This document shows positions 10,670-29,921 of a stretch of DNA of 64,000 nucleotides, piece by piece. Within the stretch, counting starts at the first letter, position 1; each line of letters begins with the position of its first letter. The stretch comes from Blastocatellia bacterium AA13. GTDB taxonomy: Bacteria; Acidobacteriota; Blastocatellia; UBA7656. Location of the stretch: positions 67,441 to 131,440 of the forward strand of contig QHVH01000004.1 of NCBI GenBank assembly GCA_003222245.1, given 5' to 3'. The position numbers were made by a program, and so were the translations under genes. The notes under the pieces were generated by a model. That model worked only from the letters and a program-made list of their open reading frames with translations. It did no database searches and had not been told where the DNA came from.

Positions 10670-10691
10670 GAATCGAGTTTAGAGAAGGCCT

Positions 10692-11873: not shown

Positions 11874-11876
11874 ACG

Positions 11877-12962
11877 ATGGATTTCCTGCAAGAGACACGC
11901 TTCATAGAACGGCTTCAGTTCTTCAACGGCGAACGGCTCGATGAATCAGATCTTCAGGGGCTCGAAGCCTTCAATCGCGAGATGCGCTGGCTTCACAATG
12001 CCAGCCTTCATCAACCGGGAATCGGGAACGGATTCGCGGTCTCGGGAAAGAAGGGCGACCGCGAAGTTCAAATCGGACCCGGCTACGCCATCGATGCGCT
12101 GGGCCGCGAAATCGTGATGACACAAAGCCGAATTGAGGCCGTTCCGCCCGTGGCAAAGGAGGATGACGGCAGCGCCGTGCTGTTTGACCTTACGGTCTCA
12201 TATCCCGACGACCAGTATCTGGAAGCCGCCGAAACGCGCGTCGGCATCTGCACCGGACCCGGGGTGATTCGTCTCAAAGAAGAGCCTGTCTTCTGCTGGG
12301 TAAAACTGAGGACGAACGGCCAGCCCGTCGATCCATCAATCAAGCAGGAGATTCTCTCAGGCATGCGGATCATCCTTTGCCGCGCCGAGGTGCTCAATTG
12401 CCAGCTCTATAAAGATGTTTCTATCGCTCAGCGTTTGAACGCGCGTCCGGCAAAACAGCCGTACATATGCTGCGCTTCGGCTGATCTTGGATGGAAAGAA
12501 TGGACGATAGGAACTTTTGACGCCGACGCAATGGACTTTCAGGGATTTATCAGGCTCTTGTTTTCGGGCCTGCCGATGATTCTTCCGGTCGGCTTGCAAG
12601 CGGTGATCGACACTTCCTCGTGTGGATTCCTGACGACGCCCTGCTACAACGCGAGGATCTCGGGTCCTCGATTGAAACAATTCGAAGCGCCGGCTCCCGG
12701 CGGAAACACAATCGAGTCCAGTGAGGCGGGCTCCATCCTGATTCCGTTTATAGCGGATGGACAGATTCAGATTGTGGACCCATCTCCGACCAGCTTCACC
12801 GTAAACGTGCTGCTGATGGTTCAGACTCTGGTGAATCAGCAATTCACCGGCGGAGTTTCTCTTGTCGCTGCTCCGTCCGGCAGCGCCGGCGACGCCATTG
12901 GAAAACTGATCGAGAAATATTTCAGCGATTGGGACCTTGTATGGATGGGGGTCGAGGGTTAA
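11877..12962 (+). CDS. paralogue B of the same family
   Basis: RLQFFNGERL...DLQGLEAFNREMRWLHNASLHQPGIGNGFAV...GYAIDALGREIVM. The central AVIDTSSCGFLTTPCY matches paralogue A. Confidence 0.55.
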   Translation: MDFLQETRFIERLQFFNGERLDESDLQGLEAFNREMRWLHNASLHQPGIGNGFAVSGKKGDREVQIGPGYAIDALGREIVMTQSRIEAVPPVAKEDDGSAVLFDLTVSYPDDQYLEAAETRVGICTGPGVIRLKEEPVFCWVKLRTNGQPVDPSIKQEILSGMRIILCRAEVLNCQLYKDVSIAQRLNARPAKQPYICCASADLGWKEWTIGTFDADAMDFQGFIRLLFSGLPMILPVGLQAVIDTSSCGFLTTPCYNARISGPRLKQFEAPAPGGNTIESSEAGSILIPFIADGQIQIVDPSPTSFTVNVLLMVQTLVNQQFTGGVSLVAAPSGSAGDAIGKLIEKYFSDWDLVWMGVEG

Positions 12963-12965
12963 GAA

Positions 12966-15188
12966 GTGGAAGGAGACAACCGCACAAACTTTTCATACCT
13001 GAATCGCGACGGCGAGTGGCCCGGCTTTCATCGAAGCGGACTCGAGCTTCTGAGCGACGGCGCGCTGCGGTTGCACTCAGTGCCGCTGTTCGACGGCGAC
13101 TTGCCAGATGAGCTGCACGACGCGCCCGATCCTTCGGGTCCGGCCGGCATTGCCGCGGCTCCGGATGGATCGATCTTCTACAGCGACCCGGCCGGCAATC
13201 GCATCATTAGAATAGACGGCTGCGATGGGTCTACGGATGTAGTCCGCTGCATCGCGCGGGAGACCGGGTCGCCGGTTGGACTCAAGACGCCTCGCGGACT
13301 CTTGATTCCGAAGTACAGGCCTTCGCTATTTGTCGCCGACTCCGGAAACAGTCGAATTCAAGTATTCGACCTCGACACGTTTCAGCTTGTGGACGTGTGG
13401 GGACAGACGGACAAGGCGCACGGTGTAAGCCCCAACGCCGGGCCGGGCCGGTTCGATACGCCGTGGGCGCTCGATGCCGACGACAAAGGCGCCATATACG
13501 TAGTCGATTGGGGCAATGCTCGAGTGCGGAAGTTCAACCGCGCCGGAACCCTCGTGCCTTCATTCTGGGACACGATGAAGCAGGCGGGCCTGCTCGAGAA
13601 ACCGTCCGGCATCAGCGTCGCTTCGAAGGCCGGTCATACGCGGTTGTACGTTTTGGATGAATCCAAATTATGTATCTTCGTTTTTGACCAGGACGGCAAT
13701 CCGGTTAGCGACAGCGGCGGAAACCCCATCAATTTTGGAACGGGACTGTTGTCGAAGCCGATGGGTCTCGCGGCGTCAGACGATGCGGTTTACGTTGGTG
13801 ACAATCAGCGGCGCCGCATACTGGTATTCAAGCACGAAGATGATTACGGCTTCGCGGGTGAGGCGGTCGGTTATCAGGGTCCAATAGCGGCGCTGGCTTT
13901 GGATGGCAAAGGCCATCTGCTCGTGCACAGCGGCCTTGATGTCGCGCCGTTCAGCCTTGCAATCGACGAAGGATTTCAGAACAAAGGCGCATTGTGGAGC
14001 GGCCCAATTCGCGTTCGCGAGCTTCCGGTTAGATGGCATCGCCTGCAAGCGCTGATGAGCCGCACCGGATCAGGAGCGCGCCTCAGATTATTCGTTCACA
14101 CAGCAGACGACCAGACCGATCAGCCCGTCGTCAATTTCGCGGCGGATGACCCCTTCGCCGATCTTCGCTGGCGGCCTGCGTCGAGCGAGCCGTTTACGAA
14201 TCTGGACGACCTCTATATAGGAGGCGACGCGGCGACATATGTCTGGGTCGGAGCGCTCTTCTTGAGCGACGGTGTTTCGACCGCGGTGCTCTCTCAGCTC
14301 CGCGTCGAGTTCGATCACGAAACTTATTTGAAGCACCTGCCCGCGATCTATGGCGAGCCGTCTCCCTGCGGCGATTTCTTAACCAGGTTCCTGTCTCTGT
14401 TTGAGACGTTCTTTGATGGAACCGAGCAAACGATTGCCGAGATTGCGCGCTTCTTCGATCCGGCGGTTATCCCGTCCGAGTTCCTGTCGTGGCTCGCGGG
14501 GTGGCTCGCGCTCGAGCTCGATGAAGACTGGGACGAAGCGCGCAAGCGAGAGCTGATCGCCGAGGCATTTCAGATCTATGGAAGGCGTGGAACCGCGCGC
14601 GGCTTGCGAGAAGCGTTGCGGCTCTATGCGGGTGTGGACGCGATCATTGAAGAACCGATCAGATATGCGCAGTGGTGGGCGTTGCCTCGTGAATCCGCCT
14701 CGTGTGAATGCAGCGACGGTTCGCAAGCCTCAAACGAACCGAGATGGGAAGGCACGGAGAACTCGATTCTCGGCGTCAGCACTTCGCTTGCCGGAGCCGA
14801 GCCGCAGGGCGCCGTAGTCGGCTCGACCGCGATACTCGACCAGTCTCATTTGATAGGCAGCGAAGAATACGGCTCGCCGTTATTCGTGGATCTGGCGGAT
14901 CGATTTACGGTGCAGATCTACCGCGGCCAGTTGAGCTGCCCCGAAACTCTTGCGCGTGTACACGACGTGATACGCCGCGAGAAACCCGCGCATACGGACT
15001 ATCACCTGTGCGTGATCGAACCGCGATTGCGCGCCGGTTATCAAGCGCGAGTCGGAATAGACACCGTAGTCTCCGGACCTCCGCTGCCTTCGGCGCTTGA
15101 TGAAGCAAGCGAGATAGTGCTGGGCGGACAACCTGCCGGCCGCGCAGGCTCTGGAAACATGATCGGCATCACGGCCCGTGTCGGATGA
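12966..15188 (+). CDS. baseplate wedge / fibre-attachment protein, P2 gpI-family C-terminal domain fused to an N-terminal NHL-repeat beta-propeller
   Basis: NHL-type repeats are present (SIFYSDPAGNRIIRID; LFVADSGNSRIQVFD; IYVVDWGNARVRKFN; VYVGDNQRRRILVF). The C-terminal block FLSWLAGWLALELDEDWDEARKRELIAEAFQIYGRRGTARGLREALRLY is typical of phage tail protein I. It has a GTG start. Confidence 0.6.
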   Translation: MEGDNRTNFSYLNRDGEWPGFHRSGLELLSDGALRLHSVPLFDGDLPDELHDAPDPSGPAGIAAAPDGSIFYSDPAGNRIIRIDGCDGSTDVVRCIARETGSPVGLKTPRGLLIPKYRPSLFVADSGNSRIQVFDLDTFQLVDVWGQTDKAHGVSPNAGPGRFDTPWALDADDKGAIYVVDWGNARVRKFNRAGTLVPSFWDTMKQAGLLEKPSGISVASKAGHTRLYVLDESKLCIFVFDQDGNPVSDSGGNPINFGTGLLSKPMGLAASDDAVYVGDNQRRRILVFKHEDDYGFAGEAVGYQGPIAALALDGKGHLLVHSGLDVAPFSLAIDEGFQNKGALWSGPIRVRELPVRWHRLQALMSRTGSGARLRLFVHTADDQTDQPVVNFAADDPFADLRWRPASSEPFTNLDDLYIGGDAATYVWVGALFLSDGVSTAVLSQLRVEFDHETYLKHLPAIYGEPSPCGDFLTRFLSLFETFFDGTEQTIAEIARFFDPAVIPSEFLSWLAGWLALELDEDWDEARKRELIAEAFQIYGRRGTARGLREALRLYAGVDAIIEEPIRYAQWWALPRESASCECSDGSQASNEPRWEGTENSILGVSTSLAGAEPQGAVVGSTAILDQSHLIGSEEYGSPLFVDLADRFTVQIYRGQLSCPETLARVHDVIRREKPAHTDYHLCVIEPRLRAGYQARVGIDTVVSGPPLPSALDEASEIVLGGQPAGRAGSGNMIGITARVG

Positions 15189-15232: not shown

Positions 15233-16030
15233 ATGTCACATCACAACGTACAACAATCTCAGCGCCGCGATCTGAAGACGCCGGCCGATTTGAAGACCCC
15301 GGTGCGCAATCGGTACTTCTACGGCAAGCTGCTCGACGTCATGCAGCTCACGATGGAGCAGGATTACTTCAACTCCAAGCGGTCGCTGGCGAATCGTCTG
15401 ATCACTGGTCCGGGAGTTGTGTGCGGGCTGGACGTCGAGCTGACGAGCGACAACAAAGGCGTGATCGTTTTGCCCGGGGTCGCCATAGATCGATGCGGGC
15501 GCGAGATCATAGTCACGCATCCATCGAAACCCGTCGAGCTTCCGCCGCTCCCGCCGCACGAGTCCGAATCCGAAGACTACAAGCCGCGATACGGCGGCAG
15601 GTCCGAGCACCATCACTACTGCGAAGAGGAATACGCGCACGTGCTGCTCTGCTATCACGAATGTGAGAGCGATCCGGTTCGAGCAGTCGCGGGTGATTGC
15701 GAGACCGTTGCTTTTTGCGAGCCCGGTTGCATTCGCGAGCAATACGAAGTCGAAGTCCGTGAAGGCTTCGCGCCCGAGCGCAAGAGCAACTTTCCCGACG
15801 TGATCGACGGCCGGCGGATCAGCTACGCGGCGATAGCCGAATACGTGACCAGAGGATGCCGCGCTCTTCCGGACGATTGTTGCATACCGCTCGCGAATAT
15901 ACGGCTCAGGGACACCGACAACGGATGGGAGCCCGAGGTCGATATCGCTATTCGCCCAATCGTGTACAACAACCGGCTCTTGTTCGACCTGATCCAATCG
16001 CTGGTCAAAGACGAAGACACCGAATATTGA
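15233..16030 (+). CDS. paralogue C (short, 265 aa) of the 4-member family
   Basis: RNRYFYGKLLDVMQLTMEQDYFNSKRSLANRLITGPGVVCGLDV......VIVLPGVAIDRCGREIIV. An AGGAGGA ribosome-binding site precedes ATG 15233. The ORF track's 5' extension overlaps the gpI-like stop. Confidence 0.55.
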   Translation: MSHHNVQQSQRRDLKTPADLKTPVRNRYFYGKLLDVMQLTMEQDYFNSKRSLANRLITGPGVVCGLDVELTSDNKGVIVLPGVAIDRCGREIIVTHPSKPVELPPLPPHESESEDYKPRYGGRSEHHHYCEEEYAHVLLCYHECESDPVRAVAGDCETVAFCEPGCIREQYEVEVREGFAPERKSNFPDVIDGRRISYAAIAEYVTRGCRALPDDCCIPLANIRLRDTDNGWEPEVDIAIRPIVYNNRLLFDLIQSLVKDEDTEY

Positions 16031-16044
16031 GAGGGAGACGAGTC

Positions 16045-17277
16045 ATGAAAACCGCTACTGTATGCCGTGAGATTCCGTGCGATCACAGCGTCGCGGAGAG
16101 GCCTCGCTACTATGCGGGCAAGGTGATCACGCACTACGACCTGAACCTGGAACAGGATTACTTTCGCAGCAAGCTTCGCCGGCACAATCGCATGCTCCAC
16201 GGCTGGGGCGTGGTATGCGGCGCGCTTGTATGCAAGCTCCCGAAGTCCAAAGAGAACGGAACAAAGTTCGAGCCGTGGAAGGTCGTCGTCAAGCCGGGCT
16301 GCCTTCTCGGCCCCTACGGAGACGAGATCATCATCGACTGCATCCGCACCGTCGATCTTCGGACCCAGGGAGTCGTCGGAATCACCGGCGAGCCTTGTGT
16401 GGACGCCGTCGATCCATGGTGCAGTCAGGTCGTTCAGGAGCCTTCGGGCGGCAAGCTCTACATCGCGGTCAGGTACAAAGAGGTTCCGGCGAGGCCGGTT
16501 CGAGTACAGCCCGTTGGGTGCGGCTGCGATGACAGCCAGTGCGAGAATTCGCGATACGTGGATGGGTATGAGATCGCGGTATTGGATCACTGTCCTAACT
16601 CGGAAGATATTCCGCCGGGAAGGATTAGTACGAAGACCGGACCAATTCCGGAGTGTCCTCCGTGCCCGGACGAGCCGTGGGTCGGTTTGGCGGAAGTGGA
16701 AATCGATGCGGACGGCAATGTGACGATCGACAACTGCATCTGCAGACGCCTTGTTGTCTCGCTGGCGAACTCCTGGTGGCAATGCAGCGACGAGCAGGTC
16801 GCAGCGCGGCCGGCGCCCGAGGGCGGCCCCGAGGGCGGCATGAATTCTCCGGCTCCGCCCGTCAATCTGCCTCGCGCGGTTGTCATAAGAGCCGCTCAAC
16901 CCGCTGAAAGACTTCAACCCAATTCGGAAAACACCATCACGGTGACCGGCGAGAATCTGGATATGGTCAAGAGGGTCGACTTCGGGTCCGGAGCCGGAAT
17001 TGCGGTTGCGGGATTCGAAGCGACTCCGACCCAGCTAGTCGTACACGTCAAGCTCGATTCCAGCGCCGCCGCGGGTCCGCGCAGCCTGCTGCTTAGAGAC
17101 GCGGACGGCAGGGAGGTCGAGATGAAGAATGCCGTTTCGATTGAGGGAACGGCGCCGACGGGAAGCAACCCGTCTCAGCCGGCCCCGGCCAATCAGCCGC
17201 CGGCGGCTAAAGCGCAGGCATCAAGCTCGAAGACAGCAAGCAAACGGCCGCGCAAGACACCGAAGGAAGAGGTCTGA
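16045..17277 (+). CDS. paralogue D, with C-terminal IPT/TIG-like Ig domain and a Pro/Ala/Lys-rich tail
   Basis: RPRYYAGKVITHYDLNLEQDYFRSKLRRHNRMLHGWGVVCGALV. The C-terminus ITVTGENLDMVKRVDFGSGAGIAVAGFEATPTQLVVHVKLDSSAAAGPRSLLLRDADGREVEM is IPT-like. This is followed by NPSQPAPANQPPAAKAQASSSKTASKRPRKTPKEEV. A GAGGGAGA ribosome-binding site precedes ATG 16045. Confidence 0.55.
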   Translation: MKTATVCREIPCDHSVAERPRYYAGKVITHYDLNLEQDYFRSKLRRHNRMLHGWGVVCGALVCKLPKSKENGTKFEPWKVVVKPGCLLGPYGDEIIIDCIRTVDLRTQGVVGITGEPCVDAVDPWCSQVVQEPSGGKLYIAVRYKEVPARPVRVQPVGCGCDDSQCENSRYVDGYEIAVLDHCPNSEDIPPGRISTKTGPIPECPPCPDEPWVGLAEVEIDADGNVTIDNCICRRLVVSLANSWWQCSDEQVAARPAPEGGPEGGMNSPAPPVNLPRAVVIRAAQPAERLQPNSENTITVTGENLDMVKRVDFGSGAGIAVAGFEATPTQLVVHVKLDSSAAAGPRSLLLRDADGREVEMKNAVSIEGTAPTGSNPSQPAPANQPPAAKAQASSSKTASKRPRKTPKEEV

Positions 17278-17380: not shown

Positions 17381-19075
17381 ATGTTTACTAGAAAACATAA
17401 AAAGACCGGGGAACGGGATTCCGAACAGGGCTCCGCATCGCGCTCCGAAGCCGTTCAATCAAATCCCATACTCGCGTTGCAGCAAACCGCGGGCAATCAA
17501 GCGGTGCAGAGGCTCCTTGCGGGCCCGAATGACGAAACCGCCCAGACGGTCGATGGAAGCTCGGCTAGTTTGCAGCCGATGCGTTCCGGCCTTGTCGGAC
17601 CTGAATCCAATGCGGCGCCGCCTATAGTTCACGAAGTATTGCAGTCTGCCGGCGAGCCGTTGAACGAGTCCGCGCGGGAATATATGGAGCCGCGCTTCGG
17701 CCACGACTTCAGCCAGGTGCGGATTCACACGAATTCGCAAGCAACCGAGTCCGCGCGAGCCATCAACGCGAACGCCTACACAGTTGGACGTCACGTCATC
17801 CTCGATCGAAATAAGAACCCCGAAGGCTCGGCGGCCGAGCAGCAGGTGCTCGCGCACGAGCTGGCTCACGTAGTCCAACAGAAGGGGGCTGCTCCAGGAC
17901 CGAAGCTCACAATAGGCGCTGCCGGCAATGCAGCCGAGCGTGAAGCGGATACCGCCGCGGATAAAGTCACCGGCGGCTCCAAAGCGGCTCCCCGAGCCGG
18001 TTCGAGCGCGCAATCCGGGGAAGTTCAACGGGACGGCCCCGATAAGACGCCGACTCCTCCGCGCACTCCATACGACAAAATGATCGTCGCGCGAGCGAAG
18101 AAGCGGCTCGAGCTGCTGAACCAGTACGTCACCGAATACACGATCCGCGAGGCGCGGCGGCTTCGGTCGAAATCGGAGCTCAATACAACTCTCGACAAAC
18201 GGGAGAAGATGGATACCGAAGGCGACAACCCCTTCGAGGAATTCGAACAGCGCGGAAAAATGGAGAAGCAGCGAATGGCTGCTCTGAACAAACGGCCCCT
18301 CGATATCGAGATCACGGAGACCGATGTCAAAATCAAGGTCAAGTTTCAGGTTCGCTTCGAAGACCCGACTCAAGATTCAAGATTCAGCGAAGTGAAATCC
18401 GGCCTCGAGAAAGGCATCGATCAAATATGGAACCAGACCCTGAAAGGCGATGTCTTCGGCGGGCGCACATTCACGGTTGAGCCGGACATCGTGAAGATGG
18501 GGCCGAAGGATGGCCGAGACTTGAATCGATGGCTGGTCACCGTGCGTCCTACCGACTCCAGTCCGGTCGCCTATCCCGGTTGCACGCTCGATCAACCTCC
18601 GCCGGGCACGCCTACCTCGGTTACCGATCCGGGATGTGACGGCGGCGTGATGAGCATCCCGCCTTCGCATATCACGAAGCCGGATATACTCGGCCACGAG
18701 CTGCTTCATCTGTTCGGCTTCGTAGACCGTTACATCATGCAGACTATAGTCATACCGGGAAGAAAGCCTCGGACGGTTACTCAATCGACTCGGAAAACGG
18801 GCGGCCGCCCCGATCCGCTGGGATCTGAATCCGGCAAGGTTCTCTCCGAAGACATAGCATTTCTGTTCGACAATCTGGGCGTCTATCAAATGGAGCAGAG
18901 CCGCGGGCTCGAGACCCTGCGTTCGCTGGAAAAACAAGGCCTCAGCTTTGCCGCCGTTCAAGGAGAGATACATCGGCAAGAAGAGATCATTCAGACGGGC
19001 CGCGACCCTCATTCGCTCATCCGGATACGCCCGAACTTCAACGACGTGATGATCAAAGAAGCGGAAGATCTATGA
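17381..19075 (+). CDS. eCIS-associated putative toxin: DUF4157 (HExxH) domain protein with a C-terminal second metallopeptidase-like domain
   Basis: The DUF4157 signature is LQSAGEPLNESAREYMEPRFGHDFSQVRIHTNSQATESARAINANAYTVGRHVIL...QQVLAHELAHVVQQ. The N-terminal motif is NPILALQQTAGNQAVQRLL. The C-terminus carries ILGHELLHLFGFVDRY. Confidence 0.8.
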   Translation: MFTRKHKKTGERDSEQGSASRSEAVQSNPILALQQTAGNQAVQRLLAGPNDETAQTVDGSSASLQPMRSGLVGPESNAAPPIVHEVLQSAGEPLNESAREYMEPRFGHDFSQVRIHTNSQATESARAINANAYTVGRHVILDRNKNPEGSAAEQQVLAHELAHVVQQKGAAPGPKLTIGAAGNAAEREADTAADKVTGGSKAAPRAGSSAQSGEVQRDGPDKTPTPPRTPYDKMIVARAKKRLELLNQYVTEYTIREARRLRSKSELNTTLDKREKMDTEGDNPFEEFEQRGKMEKQRMAALNKRPLDIEITETDVKIKVKFQVRFEDPTQDSRFSEVKSGLEKGIDQIWNQTLKGDVFGGRTFTVEPDIVKMGPKDGRDLNRWLVTVRPTDSSPVAYPGCTLDQPPPGTPTSVTDPGCDGGVMSIPPSHITKPDILGHELLHLFGFVDRYIMQTIVIPGRKPRTVTQSTRKTGGRPDPLGSESGKVLSEDIAFLFDNLGVYQMEQSRGLETLRSLEKQGLSFAAVQGEIHRQEEIIQTGRDPHSLIRIRPNFNDVMIKEAEDL

Positions 19076-19144
19076 TGGAATTGTCCGAGGGGCATCCGGG
19101 AATAACGCACGGTTCATTGAATGGCATTCCGAGGAACAGTGGGG

Positions 19145-19470
19145 AATTGTCCCTTCGGGACAATCAGAATTGTCCCGGAGGGACATTCGGCAATAGCCCA
19201 CCAGTTCACTGGTGGGTTCGTCGGGCAAGTTGATCGAGAAGTGCCGAAGGCACGGCTGACTTGTTGTTGTCAGAGCGCCGCAACAGGACCAGACAGATAT
19301 TGCAGATCATTGATGTGGTTGTCCCGAAGGGACAATCGGCAATAGCCCACCAGTTCACTGGTGGGTTCGTCGGGTAATTTGATCCGAGAGGCGCCGAAGG
19401 CACGGCTGACTTGTTGTTTCAGAGCGCCGCAACAGGACCACATACATATTGCAGATTTCTGATATGGTTC
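19145..19470. repeat. two tandem copies of a roughly 149-bp repeat, plus flanking partial copies, rich in perfect palindromes
   Basis: Unit 1 spans about 19169-19318 and unit 2 about 19318-19468, with roughly 90% identity. Each unit contains tgtcccNNNNgggaca, cccaccagttcactggtggg and gccgaaggcacggc hairpins. The tgtccc..gggaca motif recurs at 19149 and 19500. Confidence 0.8.
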
Positions 19471-19565
19471 AAAGCCTCCACACACGAACGACATCAGCCG
19501 TCCCTTCGGGACTAGATCGCCGCAGCGCTCTGGGACCCACCGATGAATCGGTGGGCTACGTTGGA

Positions 19566-19623
19566 CAATCCCTACGGGATTCACAATCCCTACGGGATTG
19601 ACAACGATCTCTACGGGATCGTA
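19566..19623. promoter_or_regulatory. candidate operator: two perfect 15-bp palindromes (aatccctacgggatt) spaced 18 bp apart plus a degenerate third copy, 36-92 bp upstream of effector-2 ATG
   Basis: aatccctacgggatt occurs at 19567-19581 and 19585-19599. The degenerate copy atctctacgggatcgta is at 19607-19623. A further palindrome cccaccgatgaatcggtggg lies at 19536-19555. Confidence 0.4.
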
Positions 19624-19658
19624 CGCACTCTATTGTTGCTAGTGACCGAAGCAGGTGA

Positions 19659-21641
19659 ATGGAGAAGCAGGCTACACAAACCAATAAACAAGTCTCCGCG
19701 GCCCAGTCGCGAAGCGCCAACGGACAGCTCGCTCCTGAACTCATCTCGAATCCCATTCTTCAACTCCAAAAAAAGGCGGGCAATCGCGCGGTGCTCAATC
19801 TGCTTGGTCCTATGGTGGAGCCCCAATCCGCGGCCGATCCGGCAAAGACCCAGCGTCCGAATCTCTCAGCCGCCGCGCTGAGCGTTCAGCGTGTCCCGAA
19901 TGGACGCGGCTCCGAAGCAAGTCCCCAGAATCAAGATTCGCATGCAGCCGCCTCGTTCATAGTTGAGGACAATGCGGAGTCGCTTGCGCACGGCCAGATG
20001 CACAAGAGCGAATTCCTCGCTCAACTTCGCGCGAGTGTCTGCCGAACCGCCGACGAAGAGTTGCAGCGAGCAGGCCAGACCGCCAAAGGCTGCCCCTATA
20101 TCGAAAAGTGGCTCGCTCATTATCGAGACAAGGATCCCGTTCATATCGAACGCGCGCTTCGCAAGTACGCTCCCGAAGCGGCGCGAGCCACGACCGCGCG
20201 AGAATACATTCCGGCGGTCGAGAACCGCGTGCGCCGTGCGATCAATAACTGGGCAAGAACCGGCGAGATCACCGGCGTTCCGGACGAGTTGAAGGGCTTG
20301 ATCCCTGGAGCGGGAGGAGGGCTCGCCGGAATGATCGGCGGCGCGGTGTCGAGTATCTTAAGCGGCATCGGCAGCGCGCTGTCCTCGGCTGCGGGAGCGA
20401 TCGGGGGTGCATTCGCGAGCATCGGACGCGCCTTGTTCAAAGGCAAAGAAGGCAGGGCTCCCGCAAACAACAGTCCTCGAAATATTCAATCGAGATTGGG
20501 GACCGGTCAGCCGCTCGAGGGAAGCGTTCGCTCGCGGATGAGCAGTGCCTTTGGGCACGACTTTTCAAACGTTCGAGTTCATACGGAAACGCATGACGCT
20601 GCTATGTCCGAGAGCCTCAACGCCAGGGCCTTTACCATCGGCAGCGACATTGCGTTCGGCCCGGGCGAGTATCAACCTGGTACGTTAGTAGGCGATGCGC
20701 TCTTGGCTCACGAGCTCGCTCACGTAGTCCAGCAGCGGAACGCTCAACCCGCCGTCGCCGCTCAAGTCGGCAATCACGCAACCGAAGTCTACGAGGCCGA
20801 AGCCGATGTCGCGGCGGCCAATGCCGTAGCCGGGCTTCACGGCCTGCGCACGGCTCGCCCGACCACATCGTTGTTGAGCGCGCCTCGTCTGCAGAGCTGC
20901 GGCAAGAAGCCGCCGCAGATTCGCGTGCCGTTCGGCGCGTCGCTCACCGAGCAGCAGGCGGATCAGCTTCTCGCAAGCGATCCCGTGATCTGGCCTCGCA
21001 TCAAGAACCGAGTCGCGAAAGGGGTCAAAGCCGAAGGGCATACGAGAGAACTGGGCTCCGAAGCATACCTGTACGCGGCGAGGGAAAAGGTGTTCAAGGA
21101 CAAGCTCAGTCTTCGACAGACTTCGTTCCAGATGATGAACGCTGGAGGCTTCGCTCAGGACGGCGAGATATACCTGCATAGGAAGGACGCCGAGATGCTG
21201 GATGTGATGGGAGGCCCCGACCGAGGGCCGGTTCCTATTCCGCCAAGCCGCCATCCGGCCACAATAGTTCACGAAGACGTCCATCTGTACGGTTCGGGCG
21301 CCTGGGTGACTAAAACAGGACGAGCGGGTAACGAAGGCACGACCGAGTACTTCACACGCCGAGTGCTTTCAAAGCAGAAGAACCCGGAAATCGAAGGCGG
21401 AGAGAAGATATTCGAGAGGGATTCGTATCCCGATGAGTACGAGGCCGTGAAGTGCCTGGCAAAGAAAGCCAATGACGAGCTTCTGGCGGACGCTTTCTTC
21501 CTCGGCACAATCGATCCGCTTAGAAAAAAAGTCGGCGAAGCCAAGTTCGATGCGTGGGCCACGGCCATGACCAACGACAATTACAACGGCGCTTACGCCG
21601 CTCTCGGCTCCAAGCCTCCCGCCAAGAAGAAAGAAGATTGA
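19659..21641 (+). CDS. eCIS-associated putative toxin 2: central DUF4157 (HExxH) domain, N-terminal glycine-zipper hydrophobic segment, C-terminal HEDVH-containing domain
   Basis: The N-terminal motif is NPILQLQKKAGNRAVLNLL. The DUF4157 region is GQPLEGSVRSRMSSAFGHDFSNVRVHTETHDAAMSESLNARAFTIGSDIAF...LLAHELAHVVQQ. The glycine-rich segment is GAGGGLAGMIGGAVSSILSGIGSALSSAAGAIGGAFASIG. The C-terminus carries TIVHEDVHLYG. Confidence 0.8.
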   Translation: MEKQATQTNKQVSAAQSRSANGQLAPELISNPILQLQKKAGNRAVLNLLGPMVEPQSAADPAKTQRPNLSAAALSVQRVPNGRGSEASPQNQDSHAAASFIVEDNAESLAHGQMHKSEFLAQLRASVCRTADEELQRAGQTAKGCPYIEKWLAHYRDKDPVHIERALRKYAPEAARATTAREYIPAVENRVRRAINNWARTGEITGVPDELKGLIPGAGGGLAGMIGGAVSSILSGIGSALSSAAGAIGGAFASIGRALFKGKEGRAPANNSPRNIQSRLGTGQPLEGSVRSRMSSAFGHDFSNVRVHTETHDAAMSESLNARAFTIGSDIAFGPGEYQPGTLVGDALLAHELAHVVQQRNAQPAVAAQVGNHATEVYEAEADVAAANAVAGLHGLRTARPTTSLLSAPRLQSCGKKPPQIRVPFGASLTEQQADQLLASDPVIWPRIKNRVAKGVKAEGHTRELGSEAYLYAAREKVFKDKLSLRQTSFQMMNAGGFAQDGEIYLHRKDAEMLDVMGGPDRGPVPIPPSRHPATIVHEDVHLYGSGAWVTKTGRAGNEGTTEYFTRRVLSKQKNPEIEGGEKIFERDSYPDEYEAVKCLAKKANDELLADAFFLGTIDPLRKKVGEAKFDAWATAMTNDNYNGAYAALGSKPPAKKKED

Positions 21642-21648
21642 GGCTCGA

Positions 21649-22926
21649 ATGACGATGCGAGGCGATAAGCTCTTCTTCAAAACGGCCGCGGCCGGACCTG
21701 GAGAGTTGTTGAACAAAGTCTGCGATGCGCTGGCGACGCCGAGGCTTCACTTTCTCGATATCGATCTGCCGGCCTACGGAGTTTTTGTTTGCCTGGGCGG
21801 CGCGGCCGGACTTGTTATGACCTTCGTGATCGCGATTAGTATTCGTCTTCCGCCGGCGCCGCTGTTTATAGCGGCCGTTGGAGGAATCTTTGTAGCGCTG
21901 ACGTTTGCATATCTGACTAAGGTAGTCACCGGAACCGAGGTATATACGTTCTATCACTATCAGATTGCCGTGCTGGCGGGCGCAGGGATGCTGCTCTGGC
22001 TTGTGGGCGAGCCGCCATTGCGAAATATAGACGTGTTGACTCTATCGTTGGGTCTGACACAGGCGATTGGCCGAATAGGATGCTTTGGTGCCGGCTGCTG
22101 TTATGGGAGACCGAGGCGCTTTGGCGTTTGCTACAACCGCCGGCATGCTTCAATCGGATTCCCGAGCTCACTTGTCGGCGTGCGGCTCTTTCCGATTCAA
22201 CTGGTCGAATCGTGTTGGATTGCAATTGTCGTTAGCAGTGGAATCCTGTCGATCGTCCGTGGCGCGGCGCCGGGTTCGGCTCTGGCGTGGTATGTCGTCC
22301 TCTACGGAAGCGGCCGATTCATTTTCGAGTTTCTGCGGCTCGACACCGGCTTTGTTCCCGGAAAATTATCCGAGGCGCAGATCACATCTCTAACTCTGAT
22401 TCTTGCGGTCGTCTGCGCGGAGTTGCGCGGGCTGCTGGTGATGGAATCCGTACACCTGATCTGCGTCGCCCTATTGATTGCGTCGGCCTGCGCGATTCGA
22501 ATGCTTCGAAAAAGAGAAATACCGTTTTCCGCGTCGCACGTGTTCGAAATCGCGGAGGCGGTTCAACGAGCCGAGCGCGATATGACTTCATCACCTGAGC
22601 TCGAACGAATCGCGGTTGAACAAACCTCGCGCGGCGTGTTGATCTCCGCGGGCAGAATTCCCAGGGGCGCTAACTCCTTCTCCCAACCGCGCGACACGAG
22701 ACACCAGATAGCGGTCACCTCTCACCTGTACCCTGTCACTCCTACCCTCTCACTTCTAACCTCTCCGGGCTCCTATTCTTCGATCTTCCACTACTGCGTC
22801 TCGGGCGCGGAGATCGGTGAACGGAGCGCCCTCGCCGTAGCCCGCTTGATAGGGCGCCTACGATGCGGAAGCGGCTCCTTTAGCCTCTTTGAGGGCGATC
22901 AAGCCTTTCACGTGATCATCGATTAG
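21649..22926 (+). CDS. Lgt-family (prolipoprotein diacylglyceryl transferase-like) polytopic membrane protein with a roughly 130-aa C-terminal extension. The signature is divergent.
   Basis: GLTQAIGRIGCFGAGCCYGRP aligns with the Lgt signature G-R-[IL]-G-N-F-x-N-x-E-x-x-G-R, with Cys at the N and E positions. It has multiple transmembrane segments. It starts 8 nt after the effector-2 stop. Confidence 0.55.
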   Translation: MTMRGDKLFFKTAAAGPGELLNKVCDALATPRLHFLDIDLPAYGVFVCLGGAAGLVMTFVIAISIRLPPAPLFIAAVGGIFVALTFAYLTKVVTGTEVYTFYHYQIAVLAGAGMLLWLVGEPPLRNIDVLTLSLGLTQAIGRIGCFGAGCCYGRPRRFGVCYNRRHASIGFPSSLVGVRLFPIQLVESCWIAIVVSSGILSIVRGAAPGSALAWYVVLYGSGRFIFEFLRLDTGFVPGKLSEAQITSLTLILAVVCAELRGLLVMESVHLICVALLIASACAIRMLRKREIPFSASHVFEIAEAVQRAERDMTSSPELERIAVEQTSRGVLISAGRIPRGANSFSQPRDTRHQIAVTSHLYPVTPTLSLLTSPGSYSSIFHYCVSGAEIGERSALAVARLIGRLRCGSGSFSLFEGDQAFHVIID

Positions 22927-24935: not shown

Positions 24936-26370
24936 TCAATCCCAATAGGGTACGTATTTTGCGTATCGTCTCGATCTATTGGAAGGATCGTCCGGCTTAA
25001 TCCTCCCCTGTTGGATTGCATCCGCAATCACTCTGGATACCGCCTCCTTCTTGCTCTCCGGCAGTTTGAATCGATCTCGTAAGGTCGTGTTGGTCATTTT
25101 CTTATTCATGATCCACCGGAGAACAGAGTGCTGGAAACAGGCTCGTACACGTTCCTTTGCATCCATATCATCGAAGGATTTATGGGCGTACATGATTGCT
25201 AGAGTGTGCCTATCACTTACACGAAAATCGGGTGGCGGCAGTTGGTATATCTCGGCGTGCGCTATTACCCTATCTATCCCGAGCCCCTGTTCTTCGCAAA
25301 TGCCTAACCGTCGCATAATGTCGGCAAGCTTTTCGTTTCGCGACTCATATTCATCAATGAATCGATCTGGTGAGATAATAGACTTACCAGGATTTGAAAT
25401 CTCGATGCGATCACTATACAGCTCAATCGTCACGGATGTTCCGGTTGCTCTGAATTCCTGATGGATAAGAGCATTCGCAACTAATTCTCGTATCGCGATT
25501 TCGGGAAACATCTTCACTTCTTGACGGAAGGCTGGGCCGATTACATCGTTGGCTGGAATCTGAGCCTTAATGAAGCTAATCAAACTCGCAAAACCGAGAA
25601 CGTATCCTTTGTTGCCGTGCGCAAAGACCCGACTATTTTCAAGTTTGTTAGGACCGTCATATACAATGACCCTTGGGCCTTTCCGGGTAAGGCCCTCGAA
25701 TTGTTTTAGGTTCTTTGCGAATAGGACCGCACCAAGATTACTAATGGCATAGTCATGATTGCCTTCGGAGATCAGGTGTTCATTCTTGAAGCGTTCAAGA
25801 ACGGCATCCCGATTTGTGGGATAGGTTTTGCCGGTCGTAGTAAATCTGAGTATCTAGCAGCCGAATCACGTCACTGGCGGAGCAATTATCGAGCGCTGTA
25901 CGCCTAAACCATTCCGGATTCCCCTCATCGAAGATTTCACGAAGCCTTTCGGCGGTCATAGGTATCAGTTCTTCACCCGAGCGCATCCAATAGGCTCCCT
26001 CAAGATGACAGGCGGTGCCGCGATGTCGAGAGGGAACATGAAAAATTACAACTCGACCGTTTGGATGGCTCAACGCTTCCACTTTCACCAAGAAATGCAG
26101 TTTGTTGAGAATCTTCTGTTGAATGTCGCCGGGATTCTCAAATGCATTTGTCCCAACTACTTGTCTAGGAATCTTATTGGTGACGCCGAGAACCAATTTT
26201 CCGCCACGTTCATTGGCGAGAGCCACGCAATACCGAAATAGCTTTGTAGTATCAAACTGAGTCTTTGCTTCTTTGAATTCTAGGTTCTCGGTTTCTCGCG
26301 GCGCGTCCATCCATCGCTCCAAGTCTGCGATTGTGGTGGTCGCGCTCATAATCCCTACACGATAGAACAC
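24936..26370 (-). pseudogene. AlbA_2 (divergent AAA/Schlafen-like) plus HATPase_c_4 ATP-binding protein, split by a frameshift or short deletion into two ORFs (25795-26370 N-terminal half; 24936-25583 C-terminal half)
   Basis: The N-terminal piece LEFKEAKTQFDTTKLFRYCVALANERGGKLVLGV is AlbA_2. The C-terminal piece IRELVANALIHQEF...TIELYSDRIEISNPG is HATPase_c_4. The two domains normally form one polypeptide. A 211-nt gap and a frame change separate the pieces. The region is lower in GC than its flanks. Confidence 0.6.
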
Positions 26371-27276: not shown

Positions 27277-28548
27277 TTGACTGTCCGAATACGCCTCAAC
27301 AGCATAGCAGTTCGAATCATCTTCGCGTTGACTGCCGCGGCTTTTTGCATCGCGCTCGTAATGGCCTCGGTAAGCCGATTCGTAGCAGCGACGCTGGCCG
27401 ATGACAGGGCGGTTCCGGATCCGGCGCTGCTTGCGCGGGTCTCCGACTTGTTTCCCGGTTCCGGCAGGCTGCATCAACGAGTCGCCGAATCCGAACTGGC
27501 GAAGGCGGCGCCCGATTCGAAGCTGGCCCGGGATCACGCGCGCTCCGCACTCCGCATCTGCCCAAAGAGCTACAAGAGCGCCGAGCTGCTCGCGGCCGCG
27601 GAAGAGATGGACGGCGACAGCGACGCGGCGGCCGAAACGCTTACACGGGCGTTGCTTGTTGCACCGAATGACGCGGGGCTCCGATGGCGACTGGCGAACG
27701 TGTTGTTGAGAAGGGGCAGGCTCGATGAAGCCGCCGCGCAATTGAAGCTCGCAAGCGCTCTCGATCCTCCGATATTCGCCGCCGCGATGGACGTGCTCTG
27801 GCGGGCTTCAGGCGGGAGCGTTTCTTTGCTCGAAAGGATAACCGGCGGCGCGCCTGATCAGCGCGTTTCGGCCGCGGTCTTCCTGTTGAAGCATTATCGA
27901 ATCGACGAAGCGTGCCGGGTCTTCACGTCGGCGTCCGGGTCTTTCGTTCCAAACTCGAAACGGCTTGAGTTCGTCAACAACCTGATCGAGGCGGACGCAG
28001 CCGCTGAAGCGCGAGCCCTCTGGCTCGGCTTGATTGGAGTGGAGAGCGCGCCGCCGGTTTGGAACCGCGGTTTTGAGACCGACATTAAGACGTTTCGCTG
28101 CCGCTTCGACTGGACGTTGAAGCAATCGGACTTCGCGCGCTTAGCCATCGAATCGGGTACGGGACGAGGAGGCGGGCGAGCTTTGCGACTCGATTTTATG
28201 TCCCGAGACACGCCCAGGCTGGATGACGAACTGAGTCAACTGATCGTTGTTCGTCCCGGAGTCAACTACGAGCTTCGATTCTGGGCAAAGACAGAGCGGT
28301 TCGACGCGGAAGGCGGACCGGTGATCACGGTGGCGGCTGCCGCGAAGCGCGTCATCGGTTTCTCGGAGCCCGTTTCACCGGGATCGGCTGATTGGAGGGC
28401 GTATGCATTTAACTTTGCTACACCGCCGAGTGAAGGCGGACGGCAGGCGGCGCTCGTGATAGGCATACAGCGCCAGCCTCGTTTCGCGTATGAGAAACCG
28501 GCCTCGGGAACTATCTGGCTGGATGATTTCGAGTTAATCGAGAGATGA
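27277..28548 (+). CDS. membrane-anchored TPR-repeat protein with a C-terminal beta-rich domain; EPS-locus accessory protein. The start (TTG 27277 or ATG 27361) is uncertain.
   Basis: An N-terminal hydrophobic anchor is present (IIFALTAAAFCIALVMASV). TPR-like helices follow (AELLAAAEEMDGDSDAAAETLTRALLVAPNDAGLRWRLANVLLRRGRLDEAAAQLKLASALDP). The stop overlaps the next ATG. Confidence 0.5.
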   Translation: MTVRIRLNSIAVRIIFALTAAAFCIALVMASVSRFVAATLADDRAVPDPALLARVSDLFPGSGRLHQRVAESELAKAAPDSKLARDHARSALRICPKSYKSAELLAAAEEMDGDSDAAAETLTRALLVAPNDAGLRWRLANVLLRRGRLDEAAAQLKLASALDPPIFAAAMDVLWRASGGSVSLLERITGGAPDQRVSAAVFLLKHYRIDEACRVFTSASGSFVPNSKRLEFVNNLIEADAAAEARALWLGLIGVESAPPVWNRGFETDIKTFRCRFDWTLKQSDFARLAIESGTGRGGGRALRLDFMSRDTPRLDDELSQLIVVRPGVNYELRFWAKTERFDAEGGPVITVAAAAKRVIGFSEPVSPGSADWRAYAFNFATPPSEGGRQAALVIGIQRQPRFAYEKPASGTIWLDDFELIER

Positions 28549-29921
28549 ACTCCGAAGAAAAACCCATCGGTTCGGATGAAGCTGGCGGAGGCCTCGCGAA
28601 GGCGCTCGGCGTGGGCGTCCTCTCGACCGCCGCGTTTGCGGTCCTTGCTCACGGCGCCGTCGAACCATGGTCCGCGTGGGCGTGCCAGCTCCTGACTGCG
28701 GCGCTTGTATTGATATGGATCATCAAAGCGGTACGAGACCGGTGCGTCAATATTACCGTGCCGGGACCGGTGATTCCGCTGGCCGCGCTTACATGTGTGG
28801 CCGCGCTACAGAGCATCGCCGTGCGCAAGAGCGACGGATCTCTGCTGAGCCTGTCGGTCGATGTGGAAGCGACGCGAGGCGCCGCCCTCATGCTGGCCTT
28901 CGCTCTGCTTGCGTCATTGATGGCGGCTACTTTTATTCAGGGGCGGGCATGGTGGAGGCTCGCCGCTTCGTCGGTTGTCGTGTTCGGATTCCTGCTGGCG
29001 CTGTTCGCATTGCTTCAACACGTATTCTGGAACGGAGCCATTTACTGGCTCCGGCCCGCGCGAGCGATTGCATATGGTCCTTTCGTGAACCGGAATCACT
29101 TTGCGGGGTTCATCGGGATGTTGGCGCCAACGGCTCTTTCTCTCGCGCTGATGGCTCCGATCAGGCGGGAACTGAGGGCGCTTTATCTGTTCGCGGCCCT
29201 ATTCATGGCGCTGGCGGAAGCGGTGTCGGTCTCTCGGGCTGGGATCATGAGCCTGCTGGCGTCGTCGTTGATGGTGATCGTATGCGTCAAGGGTTCGCGG
29301 CGCGAAGACGAAAGTGAAAGTTCGGCGAAGCACAGGGGACGCCTTGTAAAACTAACTCTCGCGGCCGCTCTGTTGATGATCACTGCCGGCGGCATAGTCT
29401 GGATAGGAGCCGATCCGCTTCTAAGCCGGGCCGCGGAAACAATGGGGGCCGCGCGCGGCGTATCGAACATCGCATCGGATCCTGCATCGTTTCTGAGCAG
29501 GGAGTGGATATGGAAGGATGCGTTCGCGATGTTTCGGGCAAATCCGGTTCTTGGAGTGGGCCTGGGCGGATTCGAAACCGCGTATCCTTCATATGGGCAT
29601 GGCAACGGCCGCGTCGTCGTCGATTACGCTCACAATGATTATCTACAGGTTCTGACCGACTGCGGGATTGCGGGAGCCGTTCTTGCGGCCTGGTTTTTGT
29701 TTGCGGTGATACGGAGCATCATCGCGGCAACCAGAACTCGCGAGCCTCTGCTCAGGGCGATTGCCGTAGGCTTTGGCGCCGGCGTCGTCTCGATGCTGGT
29801 TCACAGCGCTTTTGACTTCAACCTTCAAATCCCATCGAACGCGTTGACGTTCTTGATTCTTGTCACTCTTGTATCTGGAATCGCGGGCCGTACAAGGCAA
29901 AGGGCCGCGACCGGCTTCTAA
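28545..29921 (+). CDS. O-antigen ligase / Wzy_C-family polymerase-like membrane protein
   Basis: It has about 10-12 transmembrane segments. The Wzy_C motif YAHNDYLQVLTDCGIAGAVLAAWFLF lies in a periplasmic loop. Confidence 0.7.
   Translation: MNSEEKPIGSDEAGGGLAKALGVGVLSTAAFAVLAHGAVEPWSAWACQLLTAALVLIWIIKAVRDRCVNITVPGPVIPLAALTCVAALQSIAVRKSDGSLLSLSVDVEATRGAALMLAFALLASLMAATFIQGRAWWRLAASSVVVFGFLLALFALLQHVFWNGAIYWLRPARAIAYGPFVNRNHFAGFIGMLAPTALSLALMAPIRRELRALYLFAALFMALAEAVSVSRAGIMSLLASSLMVIVCVKGSRREDESESSAKHRGRLVKLTLAAALLMITAGGIVWIGADPLLSRAAETMGAARGVSNIASDPASFLSREWIWKDAFAMFRANPVLGVGLGGFETAYPSYGHGNGRVVVDYAHNDYLQVLTDCGIAGAVLAAWFLFAVIRSIIAATRTREPLLRAIAVGFGAGVVSMLVHSAFDFNLQIPSNALTFLILVTLVSGIAGRTRQRAATGF

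Follow-up and report, generated by a model that had tools for sequence, protein, structure and literature searches.

A divergent Lgt paralogue linked to a cysteine-box cargo class in extracellular contractile injection system clusters, and its possible role in cargo lipidation

Prolipoprotein diacylglyceryl transferase, Lgt, is regarded as an essential housekeeping enzyme that occurs as a single gene, faces the periplasm and is a target for antibiotics. As set out in passages of two papers (PMC4728403, PMC8689077), the E. coli protein has seven helices, a cationic cytoplasmic face with the C-terminus, and a negatively charged periplasmic face, on which the head domain, two arms and the mouth of the active-site cavity are located; only after export can its substrates reach the enzyme. 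The present analysis concerns an Lgt-like protein encoded in a 64,000-nt stretch of the genome of Blastocatellia bacterium AA13 (the window; all coordinates refer to it unless a locus is named). Its gene is the last one of an approximately 31-kb cluster for an extracellular contractile injection system (eCIS) and directly follows the gene of a cargo protein, effector 2. The Lgt-like protein has in common with E. coli Lgt (PDB 5AZB/5AZC; PF01790, TIGR00544) the fold and the counterparts of R143, Y235, R239, E243, R246, E202 and D129, and a cysteine acceptor with leucine at position -3 is plausible for it too. In contrast, canonical Lgt lacks the eighth helix and the 135-aa C-terminal domain of the Lgt-like protein, which aligns with the C-terminal 60% of the PF01790 profile only, falls in a separate clade, has a reversed charge bias and is predicted to direct its active site towards the cytoplasm. 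Whereas canonical lgt lies beside lspA, the Lgt-like gene is found in eCIS clusters, and its candidate acceptor, unlike the substrates of Lgt, is an LQRC box in a protein without a signal peptide.

Two other described systems offer a comparison. AatD of the Aat system, the nearest counterpart in concept, is according to passages of PMC8689077 likewise a lipoprotein-pathway paralogue encoded with a secretion system and lipidating its own cargo; it is a relative of Lnt and carries out N-acyl transfer to the N-terminal glycine of a soluble exported protein. The present locus differs from it in having an Lgt paralogue, a phage-tail-like injector and a predicted cytoplasmic-face site. The DUF4157/eCIS_core cargo, as presented in passages of Geller 2021 (PMC8213781) and for AlgoCIS Cgo1/Cgo2 (bioRxiv 10.64898/2026.05.27.728243), shows the same architecture of leader, DUF4157 and variable effector part, and the same location at the 3' end of the cluster. 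Compared with this described cargo, the partners of the window type add a conserved N-domain and a Cys box after the HExxH motif, and in the samples compared this subclass appears only together with the Lgt-like gene. Within the literature searched, no description of the Lgt-like eCIS family in print was found: searches linking eCIS with diacylglyceryl transferase, Lgt, Lgt paralogues or effector lipidation returned nothing on the family. Lgt terms are absent from the main texts of Geller 2021 (PMC8213781) and Danov 2024 (PMC11297309), the supplements of the latter being a place where the family could be listed, and Lgt is not mentioned in the DUF4157 passages of the bioRxiv preprint, whose supplements could list it as well.

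The open reading frame (ORF) of the Lgt-like protein is open throughout, begins with an ATG codon preceded by GAGG at 7 nt, and is separated by a 7-nt spacer from the stop of the effector 2 gene at 21641. The features located along it are as follows.

21649..22926, + strand: Lgt-like gene (425 aa, P0001), the final gene of the eCIS cluster (ORF, translation, Pfam, AlphaFold2, Foldseek).
21772..22425, + strand: Lgt-fold core, residues 42-259, with seven helices and the head loop 149-182 (AlphaFold2 model).
22069..22113, + strand: signature motif GRIGCFGAGCCYGRP, residues 141-155 (translation, alignment).
22447..22515, + strand: extra eighth membrane helix, residues 267-289 (AlphaFold2 model).
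22516..22923, + strand: conserved C-terminal alpha/beta domain, residues 290-425 (alignments, AlphaFold2 model).
22675..22779, + strand: disordered insertion of 35 residues (343-377; 342-376 in the AlphaFold2 model) inside the C-terminal domain (predicted local distance difference test, pLDDT, below 50).

The assignment to the Lgt fold is based on two kinds of search. The Pfam LGT profile PF01790 recognizes the protein with E 1.3e-19 and 70.9 bits against a cut-off of 24.9, the match spanning only profile positions 89-236 of 240, which correspond to residues 107-256. An AlphaFold2 model built on 50 relatives (pLDDT 85.3, predicted TM score 0.83) consists of eight membrane helices and a C-terminal domain folded at residues 295-425, with the core helices at residues 42-64, 69-94, 101-118, 123-148, 183-203, 210-229 and 242-259. 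When this model was compared with the PDB by Foldseek, E. coli Lgt 5azb was the first match and the sole one below E 0.001 (E 2.6e-4, prob 1.0, 276 columns, TM 0.56 by target). By sequence, a phmmer search of PDB sequences with P0001 as single query did not find Lgt, and the family profile reached 5azb at E 0.12 only; the Lgt identity therefore needed the fold search and Pfam. The NCBIfam equivalog cut-offs are unmet (TIGR00544, 44.8 vs 118.9; NF000778, 67.1 vs 334), and the canonical lgt of the same genome also remains below them, although far closer (113.9 vs 118.9; 181.4 vs 334). The ESM Atlas supplies only automatic 'Lgt domain-containing' names for the protein. A sequence-only reading of the window had described this ORF as polytopic, directly downstream of effector 2, endowed with a counterpart of the Lgt signature and extended by roughly 130 non-membrane residues. 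All four features are found: the 7-nt spacer, the eight membrane helices, the motif GRIGCFGAGCCYG(RP) beginning at residue 141 within a PF01790 match above its cut-off, and a folded, conserved 135-aa C-terminal domain in the model and alignments.

In the alignment, the sequence of the canonical copy stops around the helix-8 region, this helix being absent from canonical Lgt. Modeled separately, the C-terminal domain gives a pLDDT of 76.9, and Foldseek retrieves no match for it at E<=0.001. The PscP substrate-switch domain 5cuk_A (VIA-align Z 7.3, root-mean-square deviation 3.2, 86 residues) lies within the noise band of 7-8 of that tool and is retained as a lead only. The 35-residue insertion is limited, among the 121 members compared, to P0001 and its 97%-identical relative P0002, and is thus lineage-specific.

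The window genome (7.0 Mb, 106 contigs, 98.9% complete) contains a second PF01790 match on another contig, C42. It corresponds to a canonical lgt of 274 aa (Pfam 166-167 bits over positions 2/8-240), flanked by the gene for signal peptidase II (PF01252, E 1.1e-40) immediately upstream and by one for a pseudouridine synthase downstream. This lspA-lgt pair is the housekeeping copy, separate from the Lgt-like gene, in line with the earlier proposal of a second, divergent Lgt-family gene. The same reading had taken Cys in place of the conserved Asn and Glu of the signature as a mark of this divergence, and here the outcome is divided. Compared with the E. coli signature, G142RLGNFINGELWG154 (given so in a passage of Mao 2016, PMC4728403), the Lgt-like protein does carry Cys at the positions of N146 and E151. 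However, the signature of the canonical copy reads GRLGCFAAGCCWGKP, as placed by a column-for-column HMMER alignment with GRLGNFINGELWGRV of 5azb, and the argument fails because the housekeeping copy carries the same Cys. The sequences accordingly indicate that Cys at these positions is a trait of the ordinary Lgt of this lineage. The same pattern occurs in 57 of the 61 canonical-length Lgt ORFs extracted from loci L021-L082, which come from Clostridia, Bacteroidota, Elusimicrobiota and other records; these loci were retrieved with a pattern containing these Cys, so that the count documents existence and is not a measure of frequency. Within the Lgt-like family, C145, C150 and C151 are invariant in all 121 members.

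The extent of this family was evaluated by a word-indexed search in which 8000 candidates were scored. At E<=0.001, 220 homologues were obtained, and the best 120 listed all have a precomputed PF01790 assignment. Most of those listed are 380-440 aa long, with 90-96% query coverage and 31-45% identity; one is 97% identical. Alignments comprised the 121 sequences and the canonical copy. The E. coli residues were mapped by two routes, one through the canonical copy and 5azb, the other from the family profile itself. In alignment A1 (50 rows), 30 columns are invariant, including R142, Y219, R223, R230, E187, Q184, P182, C145, C150 and C151; of these, R142 corresponds to E. coli R143, Y219 to Y235, R223 to R239, R230 to R246 and E187 to E202. 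D128 (E. coli D129), E227 (E243), K91, Y102 and H103 are conserved to at least 90%, and H297, T326, G329, S333, S385 and H421 of the C-terminal domain are nearly invariant in the family. Taking the residue roles from passages on E. coli Lgt (PMC8689077, PMC4728403), the phosphatidylglycerol-binding and catalytic network is kept, with counterparts of R143, Y235, R239, E243, R246 and E202.

A profile of the C-terminal domain (A2, 16 rows), searched against representatives of 50%-identity clusters, matched 642 of these at E<=0.001, with 405 of them reaching E<=1e-10, the domain lying at about 280-395 in full-length matches of roughly 400 aa. In a quick maximum-likelihood tree of the membrane part (50 family and 58 canonical rows), the family is split from 57 canonical rows by branches with values of 99 and 99 in the Shimodaira-Hasegawa-like approximate likelihood ratio test (SH-aLRT). 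The remaining canonical-length row, L026 from a Microlunatus record, has a very long branch and falls on the family side with weak support (81); its placement is unsure. As judged from these comparisons, the Lgt-like protein is a member of a separate, uncharacterised clade of Lgt paralogues comprising at least 400 sequence clusters. It has the Lgt scaffold, but departs from housekeeping Lgt in its equivalog scores, predicted topology, genomic context and clade.

The partner cargo of the window, effector 2, exhibits the following features.

19659..21641, + strand: effector 2, 660 aa; Pfam eCIS_core at residues 285-362 (E 1.2e-30).
19950..20288, + strand: cargo N-domain, residues 98-210 (~113 aa; alignment A3); no Pfam family.
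20877..20900, + strand: Cys box SAPRLQSC, residues 407-414, 55 residues past HExxH; Cys414 is the candidate modification site.

Its layout consists of a leader, the N-domain, a Gly/Ser-rich stretch, the eCIS_core HExxH domain, the Cys box and a variable C-terminal part, and residues 31-420 are 42-47% identical to cargo adjoining Lgt-like genes elsewhere. The module shared by these cargo proteins comprises the N-domain, for which the ESM Atlas returned nothing, the Gly/Ser-rich stretch, the HExxH domain, an LE-DAD element and the Cys box. The N-termini are hydrophilic, and no signal peptide was detected. The box has the consensus L(R/K)SGL(R/K)LQRC and lies 53-65 residues after HExxH, with a linker rich in Lys, Ser, Pro and Gly between it and the variable C-terminal part; its Cys is invariant in alignment A4 (20/20 rows). 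Among the eCIS_core ORFs of the Lgt-like loci, 18 of the 24 that have the N-domain contain the strict box, as do 2 of the 9 that lack the N-domain, and these last two are the cargo genes adjoining the Lgt-like gene in L004 and L016. Among metagenome cargo ORFs of the A3 type with enough sequence after HExxH, 59 of 72 carry the strict box and 11 of the 13 exceptions are near variants, such as TGLKLQRC and AGLRLQRC. The strict matches have Leu at -3 (56/59), Gln at -2 (52/59) and Arg at -1 (51/59). As a control, 20 eCIS_core regions were taken from genomes of the same phylum that lack the Lgt-like gene; in the 16 proteins that parsed, no Cys box occurs within 130 residues after HExxH. A second nearly conserved thiol is found in the N-domain, where Cys47-Pro48 (A4 column numbering; the Cys of KGCPY) is nearly invariant; it is absent from the L005 and L011 partners, which have Gly-Ser there.

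Two side observations concern the same proteins. The cargo N-termini (window 19659-19800 and L005-L018) share NP-x-L-x-LQ-x-x-x-GN-x-A-V-x-x-L ahead of a disordered region, possibly a system-specific loading signal. In several cargo genes (L014:11036-13702; L084:6851-9577, 9579-12011 and 12593-15040; L085:7640-9931 and 10594-13206), two eCIS_core domains flank the N-domain.

The association of the Lgt-like gene with eCIS and with this cargo was inspected from both sides. The Lgt-side sample contained 80 loci, one genome per species, with L003-L018 representing full family members from Acidobacteriota, Chloroflexota/Anaerolineae and Desulfobacterota records. Their ORFs came from a simple greedy caller, and 96 of 123 were scanned, L019, L020 and some distal ORFs being left out. 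Of the 16 loci L003-L018, 15 have eCIS structural or eCIS_core genes no further than about 4.5 kb away. Four further loci (G131, G279, G345) also have eCIS or eCIS_core neighbours, and in the window genome the same position is seen in a cluster running from the ATPase gene to the Lgt-like gene. Across 401 genomes of the phylum of the window, the C-domain profile A2 matched in G000 (the window's own genome), G131, G279 and G345, together with a weak, stop-interrupted match in G061 (E 2.3e-4), and the N-domain profile A3 matched in exactly G000, G131, G279 and G345, on the same contigs and 1-7 kb from the Lgt-like gene. eCIS_core (PF13699) is present in 46 of the 401 genomes, two of them flagged unpublished. 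The Lgt-like/N-domain pair occurs in 4 of these 46, belonging to four different families, and in none of the other 42, while the N-domain occurs in none of the other 397 genomes. A second phylum sample, 291 genomes around that of L019, had the C-domain only in its centre genome and is uninformative on co-occurrence. The Lgt-like family is thus rare (4/401 and 1/291 genomes), yet distributed across several phyla.

From the cargo side, 76 metagenome loci were retrieved by the N-domain, and an Lgt-like ORF (threshold >100 bits) was present in 30 of them. It lies on the cargo strand in all 30, downstream in 19, between two such cargo genes in 8 and upstream in 3, and the spacing to the cargo gene is -21 to +58 nt in 23. 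Where at least 3 kb is available on both sides of the N-domain gene, the Lgt-like ORF is found in 8 of 9 loci, and where at least 4 kb is available, in 6 of 6. The linkage extends across Acidobacteriota, Chloroflexota, Desulfobacterota and Myxococcota records, so the attachment to a toxin cassette, already pointed out for the window, is evolutionarily conserved across loci and not an accident of this genome. Taken as a whole, the Lgt-like protein is very probably a dedicated partner of the N-domain/Cys-box cargo class, and sequence comparison depicts a conserved module of Cys-box cargo and Lgt-like enzyme in eCIS clusters, sometimes with a CxxCxxCC protein as third gene.

The same linkage bears on the suggestion that the Lgt-like protein might be an immunity protein shielding the membrane of the producer from the neighbouring toxins. 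Its position directly downstream of a toxin gene, with a 7-nt spacer, and its polytopic nature would fit such a role. However, the partners carry different toxin domains in different loci (Ntox4, ATLF, toxin-deaminase, TGL, Transglut_prok or none recognised), while the Lgt-like gene is constant, and toxin-specific immunity is for this reason not indicated. The linkage is to the conserved N-terminal cargo module and not to the toxin part; the cargo pair of the window itself has no recognised C-terminal toxin domain; separate SUKH, HEAT or small ORFs often lie between cargo and Lgt-like gene, in several loci just where an immunity gene would be placed; and in G131, G279 and G345 two or three cargo genes with the N-domain share a single Lgt-like gene. 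This explanation, raised in the sequence-only reading, is consequently regarded as very improbable.

The charge distribution of the Lgt-like protein differs from that of canonical Lgt. In 58 canonical sequences, the loops that are cytoplasmic in Lgt contain on average 11.3 Lys and Arg residues and the head-domain side 7.2, with the expected direction in 46 of 58. In 111 Lgt-like members, the corresponding values are 1.78, in loops of 4-7 residues, and 16.0, and the bias is reversed in 111 of 111. The head-domain side in the family count includes the N-terminal segment, L2-3, the head loop, L6-7 and 15 residues after helix 8; the value is still 6.9 when internal loops alone are counted. Eight helices, furthermore, place both termini on one side. 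CxxCxxCC (PF03692), a soluble Cys-cluster domain, is fused at the N-terminus in L014, L084/P0137 and P0017, with no hydrophobic segment between it and helix 1. In P0132 and P0164 it follows the C-domain as a C-terminal fusion, in L087 and L019 it is encoded by an adjacent gene, and the cluster of the window has a separate gene for it. The small ORFs that precede the Lgt-like genes in L005, L009, L017 and L018 showed neither a Pfam family nor similarity to CxxCxxCC. According to passages of the bioRxiv preprint (10.64898/2026.05.27.728243), eCIS cargo is loaded in the cytoplasm via its N-terminal region. In view of the reversed charge bias, the CxxCxxCC fusions at both ends and the lack of a signal peptide in the cargo, it is probable that the N-terminus, head loop, active-site opening and C-domain are all located in the cytoplasm, in an orientation inverted with respect to Lgt.

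These data can be set against the simplest explanation, an ordinary second Lgt in canonical orientation that acts on exported lipoproteins and occupies its place in the cluster incidentally. The Pfam LGT match above threshold, the Lgt fold and the presence of the catalytic residues agree with it. The separate clade, the charge bias reversed in 111 of 111 members and the cytoplasm-type fusions at both ends do not, nor do the existence of a housekeeping lspA-lgt pair elsewhere and the linkage across Acidobacteriota, Chloroflexota, Desulfobacterota and Myxococcota records. The PQQ_2/BamB-like protein encoded downstream has a signal peptide, but no lipobox. An incidental location of this kind is hardly credible.

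The proposed mechanism starts from the predicted topology. The Lgt-like protein would sit upside down in the membrane, with its active site on the cytoplasmic face, where eCIS particles and cargo are made, and it would attach a diacylglyceryl group, drawn from phosphatidylglycerol of the inner leaflet, to the cysteine of the box (Cys414 of effector 2). By analogy with Lgt, this transfer step is tentatively proposed. The C-terminal domain and the CxxCxxCC protein, fused or separate, might help in cargo recognition, and the lipid-anchored cargo could represent a membrane-tethered loading intermediate or a lipidated toxin. The adjacent HExxH domain may then cut the cargo next to the Cys, much as LspA acts after Lgt; a role as an LspA-like cutter is speculation. 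Taken as a whole, the mechanism, in which a cytoplasm-facing transferase lipidates the box cysteine of the cargo, is a serious candidate, falling just short of being probable. Its most specific version appears doubtful: an inverted Lgt that S-lipidates an internal LQRC box in eCIS cargo devoid of signal peptide, with the DUF4157 HExxH motif cutting at the lipidated Cys. In that version, the particle would be loaded with, or tethered through, a toxin of bacterial lipoprotein type made wholly inside the cell. The lipidation or anchoring of a component of the system, also put forward in the sequence-only reading, is the best-supported reading of the gene.

A Lys/Ser/Pro/Gly-rich linker, such as the one following the box, is of the kind found after the lipidated Cys in lipoproteins. 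The LQRC box itself has Leu at -3 and Cys at +1 in common with the lipobox, for which the abstract of PMC12462473 gives [LVI][ASTVI][GAS]C. A complex prediction of the Lgt-like protein (A1) with the cargo module (A4), run without controls, scored 0.00 against a mark of 0.32 and decides neither way on their pairing.

Several observations weigh against cargo lipidation by the Lgt-like protein. The inverted topology is a prediction built on the positive-inside rule and domain fusions, and modification of the box cysteine is argued from gene linkage and analogy. Lgt requires small residues at -2 and -1 of the lipobox, and at both positions the LQRC box is different. At the position of E. coli Y26, 93 of the 121 members have Phe (P0001 has Tyr), and the position of E151 is occupied by Cys, though the housekeeping copy shares that Cys; in passages of PMC4728403, Y26F and the A and Q mutants of E151 are inactive in E. 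coli Lgt. In the survey of 1,249 eCIS genomes, pfam01790 is not enriched, with 2 genes in eCIS operons vs 65,421 outside (odds ratio 0.35; false discovery rate 0.89), as listed in supplementary file 4 of PMC8213781; one of these two genes is 770 nt long and belongs to a Candidatus Accumulibacter record. Finally, the member in L013, on a 10-kb contig, lies beside LanC-like/HopA1 and kinase genes with no eCIS gene visible, and in L128 no Lgt-like gene accompanies the cargo domain, although at least 3 kb of sequence is available on either side of it.

The replaced active-site residues would also suit a protein using the Lgt fold as an anchor only, in which the C-terminal domain and CxxCxxCC hold the cargo, or the particle under assembly, at the cytoplasmic side of the membrane. 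Such a membrane dock would account for Phe in place of Y26 in 93/121 members and Cys in place of N146 and E151, changes that inactivate the E. coli enzyme, for the conserved soluble C-terminal domain in all members, and equally for the tight gene linkage. On the other hand, R142, Y219, R223, R230, E187, D128 and E227 are invariant or nearly so at 31-45% identity, which is hard to explain for an anchor, and the housekeeping Lgt of the genome carries the Cys substitutions too. A docking function is unlikely on this balance.

Conservation of the catalytic residues is equally compatible with an active transferase directed at another acceptor: a lipid, a different eCIS protein, another cargo cysteine such as that of KGCPY, or membrane remodelling for particle release. 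The nearly invariant Cys47-Pro48 of the N-domain offers a second thiol besides that of the box, and eCIS particles are released by lysis, as noted in the discussion of PMC8213781. The box, however, presents a lipobox-like arrangement, with Cys in 20/20 rows of A4 and Leu at -3 in 56/59, whereas the N-domain Cys is missing in the L005 and L011 partners, and in L004 and L016 cargo having the box without the N-domain still adjoins the Lgt-like gene. A different acceptor is therefore quite unlikely, and the box cysteine is retained as the candidate site of lipidation by the Lgt-like enzyme.

If the most specific version of the mechanism, with cutting by the DUF4157 HExxH motif, were confirmed, no earlier case of Lgt-type lipidation on the cytoplasmic side would precede it, and DUF4157 would acquire a function. 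A clade that keeps the catalytic residues, is apparently flipped and is tied to one cargo class suggests that lipoprotein chemistry was recruited for the modification of toxins inside the cell. It would also give a testable handle on two questions about eCIS, namely the purpose of DUF4157/eCIS_core and the way cargo is matured or positioned before loading. A portable box (…SGLRLQRC…) with a single lipidating enzyme could, in addition, serve engineered protein-delivery particles.

The remaining genes of the cluster within the window are listed below.

1488-2168, + strand: eCIS tube gene (Pfam/NCBIfam).
3404-4075, + strand: eCIS spike gene (Pfam/NCBIfam).
4942-8364 and 8369-10669, + strand: two Baseplate_J genes (Pfam/NCBIfam).
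12966-15188, + strand: CIS12-like/NHL gene (Pfam/NCBIfam).
15856-17277, + strand: CIS13-like gene (Pfam/NCBIfam).
17381..19075, + strand: second eCIS_core cargo, effector 1, 564 aa (Pfam eCIS_core at residues 93-170).

Upstream of the window, a further 19 kb (L083) contribute genes for an AAA+ ATPase, a further eCIS_core protein, HEAT, CxxCxxCC (PF03692), Pvc16_N and sheath proteins. The CxxCxxCC protein, 248 aa long and encoded at L083:14792-15538 (G000:C61), about 3.9 kb before the start of the window, closely matches the domain that precedes the Lgt-like protein in the L014 and L084 fusions, and is likely to be the third component of the module. Effector 1 matches neither the N-domain profile (A3) nor the Cys box. 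In the variable C-terminal parts of both window cargos a further HExxH motif occurs (HELLH and HEDVH), pointing to toxin domains of metalloprotease type; no Pfam family was found for either part, and no PDB sequence match for that of the second cargo. In the gap between the two cargo genes (19076-19658, 583 nt), the sole + strand ORF of at least 60 aa is that at 19121-19345, which encodes 74 aa, is Cys-rich and has no obvious features.

Among the other family members, that at L013:8729-10006 follows a LanC-like/HopA1 fusion and an APH-type kinase, another context of thiol chemistry, and the contig ends just after it. The stretch of the window is present in six DNA sequencing runs, all soil metagenomes, and no RNA run is among the listed runs that contain it. 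On the 3' side of the Lgt-like gene, a 203-nt gap precedes the gene of the PQQ_2 beta-propeller (BamB-like) protein mentioned above. Further on, a HATPase_c_4 gene (24936-25583, - strand) and a Schlafen AlbA_2 gene (25795-26370, - strand) resemble a split AlbA_2-HATPase_c_4 regulator gene, and a TPR protein and a Wzy_C O-antigen-ligase-like membrane protein (27277-29921) mark the apparent start of a surface-polysaccharide cluster.

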